In this document: piece by piece, positions 48,663 to 57,115 of the stretch
How the letters are laid out: every line of letters starts with the position of its first letter
How positions within the stretch are numbered: position 1 is the first letter of the stretch
NCBI GenBank assembly: GCA_000004985.1
Contig: GG738867.1
Reading direction: 5' to 3' (one strand)
DNA length: 64,000 nt
From: Naegleria gruberi
Lineage: Eukaryota
Notes under the pieces: generated by a model
What the model was told of the DNA's origin: nothing
Databases searched by the model: none
Seen by the model: only the letters and a program-made list of their open reading frames with translations
Made by a program: the position numbers and the translations under genes

Positions 48663-51600
48663 TTATTGTTGTGGACATTGTGGTCCTTTGTTCTGATTCA
48701 TTAAGGCAGCGTTCATCATGAGCATTCTTTGTAGTTCTTCTTGATCTGGATGGAATTCATCAGAGTCATAATCGTCAAAGTCATCATCATCATCATCATA
48801 ATAATCACCACCTCTATAATCATCCTCATCATCCTCCTCATCATCATCATCATCGTCATGTACTGTTGTAGGTAATTGTTGAGAATAGATAGAACGTTGT
48901 TGATATGTTCCCTCACGTCTGGCAGGTTGGTGTCGAATGCTTCTAACAAAACTTTCATCGTCACCAACAACTTCCTCTTCCTTATCACTTTCTTCCTCTC
49001 CAAATAGGACAGCTTGGTGGTCCACTTGTGCGATTTGTTTGATTCTTGGAATAACTCTATTATTATCTTTAAATCTCTCCATTTGTGAACCAAATTTTCT
49101 AGTATTCTTAACTTTGTCTTTTGTAACAACATACATATTCCTAAAGTCAATAACTCTTCCTTCCTTATCATCAGGTAATGGAAATTCTGCATCTTTAGTA
49201 TCTCTTGTCTTTAAGAAAGCACGATATTTCTTTTCAAATAGTTTTGACATCTCTTTTGAATAAGTGGTTTGTCCTTCTCTCCAAATATACGTATTCTTTG
49301 ATTTTTTAAGTCTGGTTCCAGAAATGTATGCATCTTGGAAGAAATTTCTAGTGTGAGGGAAAAAGCTTCCTACGTTTTGAGTACCAGGACTGGCTGTAAT
49401 AAATTTCAGTTTGTTAGATTGTTGTTTGACCTTTTTCTTATTTCCAGATGATTTTGAATCTGGATCCACTATGACCTTAATATCGTTAAGGGCTGTTTTT
49501 ATAAAAGGAGGGTTACTACTATAGTGTCTTATGCCATATAACTTGTTTGAAATCTTTCTACAGACATCTCTCGGAGTACTATAGTCAGCTAATCCGGCTG
49601 TGAAATCCACATAAGGGGCAGAAGGACGAATAAGTTTTCTTTGGGTTTGTTCTAAAGTATTACCTCCTCCAACAGACCACCACATTGAATTCTTTCTAGT
49701 ACAATTTTTAATTCCATTTCTAATTAGTAATATTCTTGCTAGACCAGTGACTTGCTGAATATTCAATTTCTTTTTTCTACCAGTAACGCCCCACCAATCA
49801 CTGTTTTGTTTCAATGAATCAGAATCTGTCAAAAGTTTGTTACATATTTTCTTTTCTGAAAAACCAGGAACACCAATTCTAAAGCCTCTCAATCTTTAAG
49901 AAAATTAATCCTCATTCTAATAAATAAATACTTACGCATATTTTACAAGTCTAGTCTCGAATCTAATTAAGGTATTGATTAGATATCATGAAAAACAAAC
50001 TTACGTTGTAGATTGACGATCTGGATCAACAATATTACACCTTGTAGAGAATGCTTTAATGGCCCTTGGTAAAGCATAAACTTGATGTCCATCATATGCA
50101 ACACAACAACTTGCAACATCAAATCCCATTAGTATTTCTGACATACTCTTGTAAATTCTTAAAATAATTTGTACTTTTCTAAAATTAGGATGGAAAGTAA
50201 AAGTGATTGCATTATCTGTTCTTATGATTGCAATGTCATTTAGCTCAGTCTTTCTGTTGTATGTTTTTTTCAAAAAACTAGAATCTGGAATACTGCTGAC
50301 TTGTTTTTTTAAGTGTTCATAAATGTAAATTATCTTATCTATTGCCCTTTTTTCGTCAATATCATAAAGGAAGATGTCAATATCACTCTTAACAAAATTT
50401 TTCTTGTAGTAAGAATATAAATTTTTTTCTGGACTATCTTCTTCCTTCTTCCTGGACTCCTTAAATGCTACGAGTTTGGAAAATTCTTCGTCTCCAGAAG
50501 ATGTAAAGTAATCACTATTTTCAAGAGTTTCTACTTCATCATTGGATTCATCATCTTCAGTCCAATATGGCTTATCATTTGGATCACTGTATGTATTTTC
50601 CTCAATTTCAAAGTTTTTCTTCTCGGCTTGAGGTTTCTCTTGTTGATCAGCAAGTAATAAGCAGTTTAACACTGAACCTCCAGCGCATGCAATATTTGAC
50701 CAATCGAGGTCTTTCAATAAAAAACATGAAAAAGCATCGAATTGATTTTGGAAAGTTTCTTTTGAATTGCAAATAACTGGGATTGGTGGTTTTTTGATTT
50801 GTTCACGTTTACACAATTCTGCAGCCTCTTTTTCATTTTCAAAGTCGAAAAGAGGGTAAATAGAGGATGGTAGCTCTGTTTTCTTGCACAAATCGGAAGA
50901 TTCATCATTAAATAATTCTATCAAGTGTAGTTTTGGATCTTGTAAAATTGGATTATTTCTTTCTAATAAAGAGTTATACATATCTCTCAAAAAGTCTTCA
51001 TTTTTCTTAATGTTGAGATTAGTTTCACCTAGCAATTCGAAAGGAAACCTAAGTGGATCGAGATGTTCAAGCAAAAATTTAACATTCAATTCTTTTGCCA
51101 AGTTATAAAGTTGCTTTCTTGGTGCTACTTCTTTTGGAATATTAGCTGTAAAGTCATCAGAATTATAACACTCAACTAGTACTCTAAAGGTAGATGGGTC
51201 TCTATCAATGAATATCTCCTCATCGTTTCTTTTTTCTTTACAAAGAGTGGTTAATAAACTGTCACGATTAATAAGTTTTTCAAAACCAATTTCAAATAGT
51301 ACCCCTCTTACATTGAATTTTTTGAGTGGTTTTTCAACTTTCTCATCTAATTCCTTCAATTTATCTCTTAATTTGACTAGCTCAGTGTCTTTATCAGCAA
51401 CATATTTATCAAAAAGCTCCTTCTCTTCTTGTGTCAAATAGACAATATCTCTTGTTAGCAATTTAGATTCTTCTTCATCATGTTTTCTATTCTCATCTGA
51501 TTCATTCTTCTCTTGATTGGAATTTGATAATATTTTTCTATCCTTCTTGATTTTGAGTGCAATAATATTACTCAACTTTTGAGTTCCAAAAAAGTCCGAT

Positions 51601-52271
51601 TCTTCTAAAAGGTTTCGTAATTCTATCAAACTTTCTTCAGATGGGTATTCTTCAGGAATGCCGATATATTTTGTTGATCCTGATGAGAGAGTTAAATAAG
51701 GGTTCATAACAATTAACTTACCTGTTCTAATATGTTCTAAAATTATTGGGAAATAATGTGGGTTTCTATCAGCAATTACAATACATCCATTCTCATCTTT
51801 ATCAATTGGGAATTCAGAGTTGATCATAACTTTCAACATGTTTTCTCTTTGGTTCAGTGTTTTCTTGGTTGTTGTGTAAATACCTCCACCAATATTCAAC
51901 TTGATAATATTCTCAGCAGATGTATCATTCGTTGCACGTAATTCACTCAAAGTTGCAGTATCCGATTTGCTATACAAAGGAATACCAACAATACCTTCCT
52001 TGTTGAATTTATCTACCAAGCCTAAAATTTTAATTCGTTGCTCAAGTGAAGCCTTCTCCTTCTTCATACACATCAGAGGAGTGAAGGAAACTTGTTCAGT
52101 TCTTGGCTGATCACTCTTCAGAAGTGGAGTTGTTGGCGATTCTGTTGCCGATGATGAAGAACTCTCACTTGCCGGTGCTGAATTGGATGGCTTTGTGGAG
52201 GTTCGTTTGGCCAAATAAATCTTTCGTTGTGGGGGCATTTTTTTTATTACTGTCGGTTTTGCAGCCTTCAT
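48663..52271 (-). CDS. large protein with two KCTD-type BTB domains and a D/E-rich C-terminus; 3 exons including a 27-nt micro-exon (50005-52271, 49936-49962, 48663-49893)
   Basis: BTB-1 'IIKLNIGGGIYTTTKKTLNQ…CIVIADRNPHYFPIILEHIRTGKL'.
BTB-2 'VRGVLFEIGFEKLINRDSLLTTLC…IFIDRDPSTFRVLVECY'.
The 782-aa ORF ends 'ACA AC|GTAAGT'.
A 42-nt intron, micro-exon 'ATTCGAGACTAGACTTGTAAAATATGC' and a second 42-nt GTAAGT…TTAAAG intron join in frame to the 409-aa ORF (…DPDRQSTTFETRLVKYALRGFRIGVPG…).
ATG chosen at 52271 (MKAAKPTV…). Confidence 0.55.
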
Positions 52272-52365
52272 TCCAATCAAGGCTCGAACAAAAAAACCAA
52301 GCCTTTGATTCACACTACAAATAATTACAAATAATGAATACAACAACAAGAATATTGGTTTTTAA

Positions 52366-54912
52366 TTAAGCAATGGTACATTTCTTTTTCTTTCTGACAA
52401 TTCTTTCTTTTGGAGGATACATTTGTCGAAAATTACTCAATGAAGAAATGATTTTTGCACCACCCAACACATCAAAAGATCCACCTGATAATCCCTTCTT
52501 TACATCCCATACTACATGTTGAACTGTACAATGAATATTTTCTTGATAGGTGAAAGAGGCATGTGGGAATTTTGTTGTAAGAATTTCAATGATTGTTGGT
52601 TTCATATTTTCTAAATGAGCTAATTCTCCCACAATTATAAAATTGCTAGAGACTTCCACCTTCTTATTCCTCTCACGAATAATAGTTTCGTATTGTGAAA
52701 TTGAATTGAGTAGTGTGCTCAATATATTTGAACCTATATGAATTCTCTTCTGTTTTCCTACATATTTAGGTGTCCAAGTTTGTGAAATATTTACTGGTTC
52801 AATGTTTAACTCTGATTCATTGGTATCAATAGTTGGAGGAATATATGCACTCTTAAGAACATCCAAACTCTTTTCATTGCATTTAGATTCTTCATAAACA
52901 ATGTATTCTCTAACAGTTTCGTGTTCAATCACAGGAATTAAATAAACTCCACTTCTGTTGACTTTCAAAACAGTACAGGTTGGTTTTTGATAGTAAATGG
53001 TTCTAAGTTTTTCCTCATCCACATAAATTACATCAATTTCCAACTCGTCCTAATTAATGATATGTTATTTGTTGATAAATAGTGACAGAAAATACTTACG
53101 AGAATGTTGCTTACTTTTGAAATAATGGAATCTGTCCAAGATAGTGGAACTGCTAACAGCAACGGTGTGAAAAAGCTCTTTTTCAAATCGTCTTGATAAA
53201 GTTGAATAATTAGTTCTTTAAAATAGTCATAATCCAAGATATTCGAATTGCAATCAAGAATAAGATTTTCTTTGGAACAATCACGCTGGAAGACTTGATA
53301 TCTATCACCACACACGAGACTTTTAAATCCATAGGCCAGAACATTAAAGTGGGAACCAACTTTTTCTGCACACAAAGCTGGAGAAGAATAAAATAAAGCC
53401 AAAGATGAAAGTCCAAATCTGTAAAATCCATCAATAAAGTCCAATAAGATGACATCTGAGAATCTATTCTGATATGATCTCGATATAAAAGCATGATACC
53501 AATCGCCTATTGTCTGTTGATATTGATAAGTTGCTTGATTTTCAATTGAAGTAATAACTCCTTCCTCTATTTCTTCTTCGAAGTCTAGATTTTTAATTCC
53601 AATTTCTCGACCAAGTGGAACTATAGGATTGATTGGCCATTTTTGAGAGTATCTTTCTTTCCAAATGTATGAGTGTCTTGTAATGGCATTCAGTTCTCTA
53701 TTAAGCTTGAGAAATGTTTGAGAAATTTCTTCTGCTTTCATAAATGAAAATATGGCATAGAAAGCATCTTCTGAAATTGCATAAATTGTAATTGGTGAAT
53801 CTTCTTTACGAGCCGATTGTTCAATTCGAATGCTTTTTGATTCGTTTGTGTGTAAATCCTGAGCTTGAATAAATTTTTCAGTTGCTAATTTAACATTTCC
53901 TTCCTTCTCTAATTGTTCACTTTCTTCCAATAATTGTAAAACTTTTTGGTATTGACTATTTTCAATGTAATTTTGCTTGTAGACACTCTCAGAATCTATT
54001 CTCTTAAAAATCATTTCAGTTCTCACAACATATTTGAAACCTTCCTTTACATAATCTCCTGAGTGGTAAATATCATGATTAAATATTGCTATGGACCCAG
54101 CTTTTGGTTGAACTGTTAAGAGTTTCTTGAATTTCATTTTTGAAAGGTCTTCATTTGTTTCGTCTGGAATCTTTTTCCAAAAGGTAGTTCCGTAAGGAGA
54201 ATCATCTAAATAAATAAGAATGGTGAATATACTTCTCTCATTGTCATTTCTGACAAAGTGAGAATCCATGTGAGGTTTAAAGAAATTTCCTTCCTTATAT
54301 CTGTTAAATCTCAAACATTCGGATAATTCTATTGGAACCCATTTTCCATTGTTATCAAATCCATATGGCTTCACATTTGTAATATCTTCCTTCTTCATCA
54401 TTGGTCTATTTTCAAAATAATAACATTCAAAAACCACGAGACTGTAAAACCTACACTATCCTATTCCATAATATTTCAGCAACTTTCTTACTAGTTACCA
54501 CTACTCTCTCACTATTTCTATACTCTTTTGAATATTCTCTATCAATCGAATGATACCCCAATTCATCAGTCACATCGATCAAATCTTGACATTCCTCCGG
54601 AGAAAGAACTTGTTCCAACACGAACAAACAATCAAGACAAGTAAATTCTTGTTTCTCATTGCCATGATCATTTGATTGCTGATTATCAAATATTTCATCA
54701 TTATTTAATAAATCAATTTCATAAATATTCGGATCTATGTGAATTTTCTTGTGTGGAATTAAATAGTCAACCCGAGTTGGGGAAGTTTGATCTTTTTGAT
54801 GGGAAACAATGATTGGAACTCTGCGTTGTTGTTGATTTGAAGTAGTTGATAATTCTTCAGTTTCGTCCCAAATATTTGCTTGTAGATGTATGTGTGGTGG
54901 AACTCGATTCAT
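52366..54912 (-). CDS. prolyl-4-hydroxylase-like 2OG-Fe(II) oxygenase fused to an F-box-like/unknown C-terminal region ending in a polybasic CaaX box; 3 exons (54455-54912, 53100-54405, 52366-53049)
   Basis: ATG at 54912 (MNRVPPHIHL…).
2OG oxygenase motifs 'FKPHMDSHF' (HxD), 'IFNHDIYHSGD' (distal His) and 'KYVVRTEMIF'.
Intron 1 GTAGGT…AAAATAG (49 nt) removes in-frame stops between ORF 54451-54948 and ORF 53028-54437.
Intron 2 GTAAGT…TTAATTAG (50 nt) joins '…KVSNIL|DELEIDVIYVDEE…'.
The protein ends 'RKKKKCTIA*'. Confidence 0.55.
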
Positions 54913-55981
54913 TTTTTTAATGCAATTGTCTTTAAAAAAATACAACAACTGTTTGAGGGAAACAGTTAGCGTCTTTGGCTAGAGGCCAGGTGCTAGCAGC
55001 ACAGAGGTTGATCAACTACCAAAACTTGAGCATCGGGTTTAGAAGTCAGAGCAAATCGCGTACTCATATTAGCATGGAGGGTAATATAGTACAACTACCT
55101 TACGGTTCAAAGGTTTAAAGTAGATTTGGGTTGATCAACATGGGCAAAAATAAAATAGCTAAGGTAATAGGAGAAGTGGAGAGTAATGATTTAATTATGA
55201 AAAGAATTTGAATGTATTGTAAAACGAAAACACATTGGTTCGTTGATATTGGTGAAGAATTAATTATTAGCATAAGACAGAATGTTCCATCCATTCCGCT
55301 CGGTGTCGTTGAGCAGGCACATAGAAGACTTCCTGGTTAACTCTTATAACATCTTTATTAAGTGTATTCCTATTTATGGATAATCAAAAGGTTTAGTTTC
55401 GTTCCAAATCAAGCTTGAAGGCTAGGCGATAACTCCAATGTCTCTACAAAAGTCCCCTTCATTTTAAATAATGATGTATCTGTGAAAGAAGCGCTGCTTC
55501 CTGCGAACTGTTTACAATTGGAGATCATTGACTTCACGTCTTTGAAGCAGGAATCTGAATAGATTCGTATTGTAAACGTAATAAAACATTACCAGATTTT
55601 TTTAATGCAATTACAGAGATTGTAAATCCAAATTCGATGAATTGTTATTGCATGTTTTAATTATCTCAAATAATCTGAAAGGAAGAGTGTTTGATTTGGA
55701 AATTTAATACATTCGATTCTACGTCGACTCTAAATCCATTTGGTTGATATTTGAATAAAAAGAACAAAAATTTGTTTTCGGAAAGAGAAGTTGAAGTGTC
55801 TTGTGTATCTATTCCATCTTGTTCAGGCAGTCTTTTCACTTCCAAACTCAACCTTTACAGCCCAAATGAAAGTGTTCTTTTTTCATTTACTTGACGAAAA
55901 GGTGATGGCTCTGACATGTAGTGAACAACTGTCTACTTCAAGTGTCGCCTCGTTTAACAAACTTCAAAAACAAATCATTCA

Positions 55982-57115
55982 ATGTCTGTCTATGGAGACT
56001 TTCAAGCTCTCGTTGTTGACAACGGTTCTGGTATATGCAAAGCTGGTTTTGCTGGCGATGATGCTCCAAGAGCTGTCTTTCCTTCAATTGTAGGTAGACT
56101 AAAGCGACAGTCAATCATGATTGGAATGGGTGAAAAGGATGCCTATGTTGGTGATGAAGCTCAATCCAAGAGAGGCATCTTGACCTTAAGGTATCCAATT
56201 GAACACGGTATTGTTACTAATTGGGATGATATGGAAAAGATTTGGCATCACACTTTCTACAATGAATTGAGTGTTGCTCCTGAGGAACATCCAGTCTTGT
56301 TGACTGAAGCTCCTTTGAATACAAAGGCAAATAGAGAAAAGATGACTCAAATCATGTTTGAAACCTTCTCAGTTCCAGCCATGTATATTTCCATTCAAGC
56401 TGTCTTGTCTTTGTATGCTTCTGGTAGAACTACTGGTATAGTTTTAGAATCTGGTGATGGTGTTTCACACACTGTTCCAATTTTTGAAGGTTATTCGTTG
56501 CCACACACCATTTTGAGATTGGATTTGGCTGGTCGTGACTTGACTGATTGCTTGATGAAGATTTTGATGGAAAGAGGTTACTCATTCAACACTACTGCTG
56601 AAAGAGAAATTGTAAGAGATATTAAGGAAAAGCTCTGTTACGTTGCTTTGGATTTCAAAGAAGAAATGAAAGTTGCTGCTGAATCGTCTTCTGTTGAAAA
56701 GTTATATGAATTGCCAGATGGCACTGTTATAACAATTGGTAACGAACGATTCAGATGTACAGAAGTTTTATTCCAACCTAATTTCGTTGGTATGGAAGAT
56801 GCTGGTGTTCATGAAATAGCCTTCAACTCAATTGGTAAATGCGACATTGACATTAGAAAAGAATTGTTTGGAAATGTTGTCTTGTCTGGAGGTACTACCC
56901 TGTTCGAAGGTATTGCTGAAAGGATGACCAAGGAATTGACTGCTTTGGCACCAGCCTCAATGAAGATAAAGGTTGTAGCCCCACCTGAAAGAAAGTACTC
57001 AGTCTGGATTGGAGGCAGTGTCCTCGCGAGCCTTGCAACCTTTCAGCAGATGTGGATATCGAAAGAAGAATATGAGGAGGTTGGTCCTGGTTTTGTTCAT
57101 AGAAAGTGCTTCTAA
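55982..57115 (+). CDS. actin (divergent paralog)
   Basis: 377-aa intronless ORF colinear with actin over its whole length (…[29 protein letters not shown]…, …[20 protein letters not shown]).
It has an atypical N-terminus 'MSVYGDFQ' and scattered substitutions. Confidence 0.9.

Follow-up and report, generated by a model that had tools for sequence, protein, structure and literature searches.

An 815-residue Naegleria gruberi protein that combines a prolyl 4-hydroxylase-type oxygenase, a divergent F-box, an actin-like domain and a polybasic CaaX-type tail

What might a protein do that carries a hydroxylase-type catalytic domain, an F-box-like segment and a prenylation-type C terminus in one chain? 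This question is raised by a gene on the minus strand, positions 52366..54912, of a 64,000-nucleotide stretch of Naegleria gruberi DNA (contig GG738867.1 of assembly GCA_000004985.1). We refer to this whole stretch as the window and to the predicted product of the gene as the window protein. The first-pass annotation of the window joined three open reading frames (ORFs) into a prolyl 4-hydroxylase (P4H)-like protein with these features. P4H domain, F-box-like segment and tail are all present, but an actin-fold domain that makes up about 40% of the protein, its C-terminal 330 residues, had been overlooked. With this domain recognised, the protein is a 2-oxoglutarate (2OG)-oxygenase/F-box/actin-like protein, and the fixed order of P4H domain, helical hairpin, F-box and actin fold is, judged by sequence comparison, the mark of an old and uncharacterised eukaryotic family that spans several supergroups. 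The reading that we favour, with a probability of about 0.5, is that the window protein is an O2- and 2OG-dependent hydroxylase that associates with Skp1 and the Skp1-cullin-F-box (SCF) ubiquitin ligase, binds partners through its actin-like domain and is probably farnesylated.

The gene itself is well defined. The minus-strand ORFs (54948..54451, 54437..53028 and 53043..52366) fall into one frame once two short introns are removed, both of them GT-AG and both lying exactly where the first-pass annotation had placed them. The spliced coding sequence is 2448 nt long and encodes 815 codons plus a stop, not the roughly 830 residues first estimated. The intron 1 junction, which joins '...LWNRIV' to 'PMMKKEDI', is matched in homologues by '...IWSRIVPFLKKSDI' and similar strings, and the intron 2 junction, which joins 'SKVSNIL' to 'DELEIDVIYVDE', aligns without gaps to 'SVVSTELINMGLDVIFIDE' of P0001, an N. 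gruberi predicted protein of 662 aa that is the best match to the window protein (58% identical). Eight homologues run gap-free through both splice junctions, and several of them have N termini that match the chosen ATG. The window is AT-rich (GC about 33%) and holds genes with short introns around this one, and at its composition an open frame of 815 codons has a chance probability of about 4e-27; no second copy of the gene lies within the window. These alignments confirm the three ORFs as one predicted three-exon gene, whose parts are as follows.

52366..54912, minus strand: whole gene, ATG at 54912, stop TAA at 52368..52366, 815-aa product (from the ORF list, splicing and collinear homologues)
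54455..54912, minus strand: exon 1, residues 1-152 and two bases of codon 153; the N terminus aligns with the N termini of paralogues
54406..54454, minus strand: intron 1, 49 nt, GTAGGT...AATAG, phase 2
53100..54405, minus strand: exon 2, residues 153-588
53050..53099, minus strand: intron 2, 50 nt, GTAAGT...TTAG, phase 0
52366..53049, minus strand: exon 3, residues 589-815 and the stop codon
53991..54654, minus strand: P4H-type 2OG/Fe(II) oxygenase domain, residues 87-291; the span includes intron 1
54272..54264, minus strand: predicted Fe ligands His198 and Asp200, within the P4H domain
54065..54063, minus strand: predicted Fe ligand His267, within the P4H domain
54035..54033, minus strand: predicted 2OG-binding residue Lys277, within the P4H domain
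53787..53990, minus strand: helical-hairpin linker, residues 292-359, conserved
53631..53777, minus strand: divergent F-box, residues 363-411, ISEDAFYAIFSFMKAEEISQTFLKLNRELNAITRHSYIWKERYSQKWPI
52414..53462, minus strand: actin-fold (Arp-like) domain, residues 468-800, with degenerate nucleotide-binding loops; the span includes intron 2
52369..52413, minus strand: C-terminal tail, residues 801-815, PKERIVRKKKKCTIA
52380..52369, minus strand: CaaX-type box CTIA, Cys812 to the C terminus

Domains along the chain

The oxygenase domain, which had been placed at the N terminus, starts near residue 87, and it has a collagen-type prolyl 4-hydroxylase fold as judged by sequence profiles and a structural model. 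A search with hidden Markov models (HMMs) of the P4Hc/2OG-FeII_Oxy type, the check proposed with the first-pass annotation, bears the assignment out: PF13640 (2OG-FeII_Oxy_3) matches residues 185-280 with 33.9 bits against a cutoff of 27, and the isolated N-terminal part reaches 36.1 bits. The HxD…H motif is present as described, and His198, Asp200, His267 and Lys277 are invariant in all 33 family sequences aligned. The Arg expected as 2OG-binding residue is not: the residue ten positions beyond the distal His is Lys277, which aligns with the Lys in Bacillus P4H, and the 2OG-binding residue is therefore predicted to be a Lys. When a domain profile built from 18 family members was compared with solved structures, the best matches were the P4Hs of Bacillus anthracis (9e-10) and Chlamydomonas (P4H-1, 8e-7), followed by those of the virus PBCV-1 (3e-5) and human P4H-TM (2e-4). 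The EGLN-like Pseudomonas PPHD reached only 0.059, and neither PhyA nor PHD2 was among the structures matched. The closest solved structures by fold are prolyl 4-hydroxylases as well, with a double-stranded beta-helix nearest to that of known P4Hs, and the catalytic domain does not group with EGLN/PHD-type enzymes, the type to which PhyA belongs. An identity as a PhyA-type Skp1 hydroxylase was dropped, because sequence profile and fold both favour collagen-type P4Hs over EGLN/PhyA. The AlphaFold2 model, computed from 33 family sequences (mean predicted local distance difference test score, pLDDT, 80.5), replaced a nine-sequence model with a mean pLDDT of 59 in the P4H domain, and now places this domain above 90. 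Moreover, the window protein and its orthologue P0001 share 88-95% identity in the P4H domain and 37-64% in the remaining protein, a pattern that points to a working enzyme.

The linker that follows is modelled as two long helices (residues 303-341, pLDDT 85-92) bearing the family motif 'SxxLEKxGxxxxSTxxYLxA', and this hairpin module follows the same P4H subtype in many relatives. As a separate observation, six proteins of about 290-300 aa (P0080, P0102, P0108, P0111, P0127 and P0150) have this P4H subtype followed only by a helical 'ELYERALSIRQ'-like motif, and they look like stand-alone versions of the P4H and hairpin module.

The F-box is divergent to judge by Pfam, and here the family carries the case. 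The string that the first-pass annotation had read as F-box-like, FYAIFSFMKAEEISQTFLKLN, spans residues 367-387, within the part of the chain that aligns with F-boxes. Taken alone, the window sequence fails Pfam, the outcome that the first-pass annotation itself had named as counting against an F-box; with a family profile, and with HMMs from which the window protein was left out, it passes. The aligned segment is recognised as F-box or F-box-like by Pfam in six of nine close homologues (best 1e-6) and in most distant relatives (best 5e-12). With the window protein and its orthologue left out of the family F-box HMM, the window segment reaches 47.4 bits, and an HMM restricted to non-heterolobosean members still gives it 20.6 bits. 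The family profile in turn finds F-boxes among proteins in the Protein Data Bank (PDB): the top 46 of 53 matches are F-box proteins, including FBXL5 (5e-15), KDM2B (3e-11), KDM2A, FBXO4, FBXW7, Skp2, Cdc4 and beta-TrCP, and the others are NDUFB6 chains at E >= 0.5. In addition, the model has short helices at residues 365-408, as expected for an F-box, Trp401 is invariant (33/33), and the core hydrophobic positions are kept by most of the 33 aligned members. From these profiles, the homology of segment 363-411 to bona fide F-boxes is clear.

The actin fold likewise emerges from the family. Pfam Actin (PF00022) does not match the window protein itself, and it does match seven of the nine close homologues (best 2e-17). 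The family profile aligns with residues 6-366 of the conventional actin encoded by the adjacent gene (95.9% probability, E 5e-9), and a Foldseek comparison of the model with actins gives E values of about 2e-14 and template modelling scores of 0.63-0.70 normalised to actin. Arp4-actin and Arp7-Arp9 are among the fold matches as well. A remnant of actin sequence, '...DVLGGAKIISSLSNFRQMY', can still be aligned between the window protein and conventional actin. Weak Pfam matches of the isolated F-box and actin segments to RnlA_toxin, FlgA_N and MC7 were rejected as chance. In actin numbering, the family retains D11, G13, G156 and G301-G302, the glycines in 26-32 of 33 members, and S14, D154, D157 and H161 are not kept across it. 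The window protein and its orthologue have further lost G13 (Ile/Val), G156 (Asn/Thr) and G302 (Glu/Glu), so that the phosphate and adenosine loops of the window protein read D-F-I-D-G, K-V-N-R-S and G-E. This loss of the nucleotide-binding loops suggests a protein-binding platform rather than a polymerising ATPase, and the domain would thus be an actin-shaped binding module that neither hydrolyses ATP nor forms filaments.

Family distribution and the C-terminal tail

The close relatives found belong to Heterolobosea. A word-index search of 5.8 billion proteins returned two sequences from N. gruberi, three from N. lovaniensis, one each from N. fowleri and Willaertia magna, and one ENA fragment, and as regards further CaaX-bearing orthologues this search and a second one of its kind added fragments only. 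The P0001 model starts at 'MKKEDI', which is the start of exon 2 in the window, and it is probably missing the first exon and with it about 150 residues, the N-terminal helices of the P4H domain among them. In a neighbour-joining tree the window protein and P0001 pair in 100 of 100 bootstraps and form a long branch inside an expansion specific to Naegleria and Willaertia; no N. fowleri or N. lovaniensis orthologue of this paralogue is found among the sampled sequences. As far as these sequences go, the window copy is a fast-evolving paralogue of the N. gruberi lineage, and that paralogue alone has added a polybasic CaaX tail.

The architecture reaches much further. When 1.84 billion cluster representatives were searched exhaustively in HMMER with the profile of the family, there were 5759 matches at E <= 1e-3 and 301 at E <= 1e-30, and several proteins of 700-800 aa were matched in a single stretch from the P4H domain through the end of the actin domain. 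Pfam detects 2OG-FeII_Oxy_3 in all nine close homologues, beside Actin in 7/9 and F-box-like in 6/9, and nearly all of 30 more distant relatives show 2OG-FeII_Oxy_3, F-box and Actin in the same order. A few distant relatives have a different or undetected C-terminal module (P0025, for example, has ankyrin repeats), and P0022, P0029, P0033, P0047, P0020 and P0052 have additional N-terminal modules, namely NADAR, rhodanese or ankyrin repeats, or long extensions that are uncharacterised. The sources, taken from a few dozen named matches that amount to no systematic profile, include the dictyostelids Tieghemostelium, Cavenderia and Dictyostelium cf. discoideum, as well as Physarum, Arcella, Pyxidicula, Dracoamoeba, Soliformovum, the chytrids Nowakowskiella and Rhizophlyctis, the centrohelid Pterocystis, and Ancoracysta. 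Hence the architecture called unusual by the first-pass annotation is so only in part: its three-domain core is widespread, and what sets this copy and its N. gruberi orthologue apart is the CaaX tail.

The family seems to have passed without description. The named entries that we examined are labelled 'hypothetical protein', 'F-box domain-containing protein' or 'Fe2OG dioxygenase domain-containing protein', a phmmer search of PDB sequences with the whole window protein gave no match, and we found no paper that describes a 2OG-oxygenase, F-box and actin family. No member linked to an F-box or a hydroxylase is mentioned in the Dictyostelium actinome paper, the paper on the Naegleria actin repertoire only counts 78 actins and Arps, and the family is not mentioned in the parts consulted of the Dictyostelium Skp1-interactome paper and one of its supplementary files.

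The tail was correctly described as polybasic and of CaaX type. The protein ends in '...RIVRKKKKCTIA' before the stop codon (the tail is also read as ...ERIVRKKKKCTIA and ...PPKERIVRKKKKCTIA), seven of the 13 residues preceding Cys812 are Lys or Arg, and CTIA is the sole CaaX-like ending among 41 long ORFs in the window. P0001 ends in ...EKRSKKKEKRCTIA, with the same four residues and an equal number of basic residues in a different order, in a tail region that is about 48% identical overall. Residues 803-815 have pLDDT values below 50, and a tail modelled as disordered suits a prenylation substrate. Farnesyltransferase (FTase) prefers an aliphatic residue such as Ile at a2 and accepts Ala favourably at X, and yeast a-factor ends in CVIA. 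Judged from these established preferences, CTIA and the basic cluster fit an FTase substrate. An FTase gene has been reported in N. fowleri (PMC7560193).

Beyond this pair, a CaaX ending is absent from the other Naegleria paralogues and from nearly all of 162 relatives, and two metagenome scans yielded no further CaaX-bearing orthologue. Amoeba proteus P0064 (806 aa), in which Pfam detects only the oxygenase domain, ends in ...PKKRCAMM, and Pyxidicula operculata P0022 (974 aa) ends in ...EQKCSTF. These Cys-x-x-x ends hint that membrane-anchored variants may have arisen more than once. The idea that 'IVRKKKKC' is a relic of the actin C terminus 'IVHRKCF' was rejected, as the paralogues have nothing similar and the alignment does not bring the Cys residues together.

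One may argue that the tail is unused, with CTIA a chance or non-substrate motif and the protein soluble like its paralogues. We consider this rather unlikely, though it is the rival that holds up best. It would agree with a tail shared by a single orthologue and missing from the paralogues and nearly all relatives, and Lys-rich ends arise easily in an AT-rich genome (GC about 33%). On the other hand, CTIA and a seven-residue basic cluster persist despite diverged surroundings and a changed order of basic residues, the model shows a flexible tail, FTase preferences agree with Ile at a2 and Ala at X, and the A. proteus relative independently ends in a similar way. Thus, the tail is probably, not certainly, a functional addition specific to this lineage.

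The neighbouring genes were noted as well:

55982..57115, plus strand: conventional-type actin gene, intact, 377 aa, Pfam Actin 479 bits
57206..57324, minus strand: 5S ribosomal RNA gene, full-length match to Rfam RF00001 at 106 bits, downstream of the actin gene by about 90 bp
50004..52277, minus strand: 758-aa ORF, the next gene downstream on the strand of the studied gene, containing two T1-type BTB/POZ (BTB_2) stretches, 63 bits

The actin gene and the gene studied here stand head-to-head, their ATGs 1070 bp apart. The BTB gene starts about 90 nt past the stop of the studied gene and has a long C-terminal region without a Pfam match at E <= 0.001.

Proposed mechanism and competing explanations

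In the mechanism that we favour, the oxygenase domain would be catalytically competent and use O2 and 2OG to hydroxylate a protein side chain, most likely proline. The F-box would dock the protein on Skp1, and thereby make it a substrate receptor of an SCF ubiquitin ligase or bring it under Skp1-dependent control. The actin-like domain occupies the position of the substrate-binding module in F-box proteins and may serve as a protein-binding platform, for which partners that recognise the actin fold are plausible. In this paralogue, farnesylated Cys812 and the Lys/Arg cluster could together bring the complex to the cortex or to the plasma membrane on its inner side. Overall, cortical targets might be hydroxylated, and possibly ubiquitylated, in a manner that depends on oxygen and metabolites. 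Docking on Skp1 and an actin-like partner module gain support from known proteins, because ARP8/SUSA2 binds ASK1 and JcdI binds Skp1.

Several points weigh against this reading. The whole family is known from sequences and models alone, from which we infer substrate, Skp1 binding and prenylation, and a prolyl specificity cannot be told from other hydroxylase specificities by fold and motifs. Pfam F-box and F-box-like models do not match the window protein even at E <= 10, either as a whole or as an isolated 67-aa segment, and Ile363-Ser364 stand in place of the usual Leu-Pro at the start of helix 1, a position at which Pro is found in P0001 and in 20 of 33 members and Ser in six of 33. With its F-box below Pfam thresholds and Ile-Ser for Leu-Pro, Skp1 binding by this particular copy is uncertain. 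Conservation of the tail comes from one orthologue, and four identical residues at a background of about 48% would occur by chance in about 5% of cases. Furthermore, the effect of JcdI overexpression on O2 sensing is independent of its F-box (PMC9485057), and an F-box on a dioxygenase is therefore no proof of ligase function.

A broader proposal can be made for the whole class. Proteins with P4H, F-box and actin fold might be ancient O2- and 2OG-sensing SCF adaptors in which a nucleotide-free actin mimic captures actin-binding partners and couples turnover of the actin machinery at the cortex of amoeboid eukaryotes to O2 or metabolic state, one paralogue of the N. gruberi lineage having been relocated to the membrane by a farnesyl-polybasic tail. 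We regard this as a speculation that is quite unlikely to hold in full.

Another explanation leaves SCF aside: the actin-like domain would pair with actin or actin-binding proteins, the P4H domain would hydroxylate actin or its regulators at the cortex, and the F-box would be vestigial in this copy. Actin-fold proteins often occur as heterodimers with actin (Arp4-actin, Arp7-Arp9), and these very pairs are among the fold matches of the window protein. The window F-box is degenerate, and the named members, a few dozen matches that do not form a systematic sample, belong mostly to amoeboid or amoeboflagellate lineages and chytrid fungi. There is also a claim that PHD3 hydroxylates prolines of non-muscle actin (PMC4161513), but in the portion consulted of a later study recombinant PHDs showed no activity on reported substrates other than hypoxia-inducible factor (PMC6739866). 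Retention of Trp401 in 33/33 members and of the core F-box positions in most of them argues for selection on Skp1 binding. The P4H domain is absent in only 3 of the 150 F-box/actin sub-profile matches listed, all short fragments, a weak argument given that the ranking favours P4H-containing proteins. On balance, we find a purely cytoskeletal hydroxylase doubtful.

A role in which the F-box only docks the P4H domain on Skp1, with Skp1 itself as the substrate as for PhyA in Dictyostelium and Toxoplasma, is very doubtful. It would make sense of a P4H domain and an F-box in one chain, held apart by a conserved, rigid-looking helical hairpin, and Skp1 prolyl hydroxylation is established in protists (PMC9485057). 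However, the domain is not of the PhyA type, and the actin domain would go unexplained.

Finally, a decaying paralogue or mis-joined gene model without a function of its own is highly improbable: the long branch and the loss of three loop glycines and of the F-box Leu-Pro would suit it, but the frame of 815 codons is intact (chance about 4e-27), the ORF is kept in N. gruberi with a catalytic domain 88-95% identical, both introns have canonical splice sites and homologues stay collinear through the junctions. A pseudogene reading was dropped given the intact frame and the conserved catalytic domain.

Comparison with known systems

Each part of the window protein (P4H oxygenase, F-box, actin fold and CaaX tail) is well known; it is their fixed combination for which we found no published description, and its core has been conserved in Heterolobosea, Amoebozoa, chytrids and other protists. 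The family would define a clade of the actin family with an attached enzyme. Moreover, its members in Dictyostelium make Skp1 binding, O2 dependence, substrate and recognition by the actin fold experimentally accessible, and the CaaX-tailed Naegleria paralogue would offer a natural experiment in membrane relocalisation of such a complex.

The nearest parallel for the C-terminal half is Arabidopsis ARP8/SUSA2 (At5g56180), which has an F-box and an actin domain and binds the Skp1 homologue ASK1 (PMC7562919). Like the window protein, it has an F-box followed by a divergent actin-fold domain; unlike it, ARP8/SUSA2 has no oxygenase domain and no CaaX tail. A protein search with an F-box plus actin profile aimed at plant ARP8 found two family members only. 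The same paper states that the pairing of actin with an F-box is restricted to plants (PMC7562919), which is contradicted by its occurrence in a 2OG-oxygenase family outside plants.

For the oxygenase and F-box, the closest systems are Dictyostelium JcdI/Fbxo13, an F-box protein with a JmjC dioxygenase for which Skp1 binding and limitation by physiological O2 have been described (PMC9485057), and human KDM2A and KDM2B. These also combine a 2OG/Fe(II) oxygenase and an F-box in one polypeptide, and the KDM2A/B F-boxes are among the best PDB matches of the family F-box profile. In contrast, their oxygenase is of the JmjC type and that of the window protein is of the P4H type. The F-box of JcdI is N-terminal to the JmjC domain, whereas the oxygenase is N-terminal to the F-box in the window protein. 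The C-terminal module also differs, being an actin fold here and leucine-rich repeats or other domains in the KDM2A/B and JcdI group. The family may thus add a second kind of dioxygenase-bearing F-box protein, beside JcdI, to the picture of oxygen sensing in protists.

The relatives of the catalytic domain itself are of a different kind. Chlamydomonas P4H-1, PBCV-1 vCPH, Bacillus anthracis P4H and human P4H-TM are stand-alone secreted, endoplasmic reticulum or viral enzymes that act on Pro-rich or collagen-like substrates; the window protein is a multidomain protein of cytoplasmic type without an evident signal peptide. PhyA of Dictyostelium and Toxoplasma is, by comparison, a cytoplasmic protist prolyl hydroxylase functionally linked to Skp1 and SCF, but it lacks an F-box and is a single-domain enzyme of EGLN/PHD type. 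The comparison with Skp1 prolyl hydroxylases drawn in the first-pass annotation therefore holds as an analogy and not as membership, the domain being nearer to collagen-type P4Hs by both profile and fold.

We know of no hydroxylase, F-box protein or actin-family protein with a polybasic farnesylated tail. The window protein resembles instead the tails of K-Ras4B and of yeast a-factor (CVIA): its Cys is the fourth residue from the end, a2 is Ile and X is Ala, and its Lys/Arg cluster sits on a tail that is predicted to be flexible.

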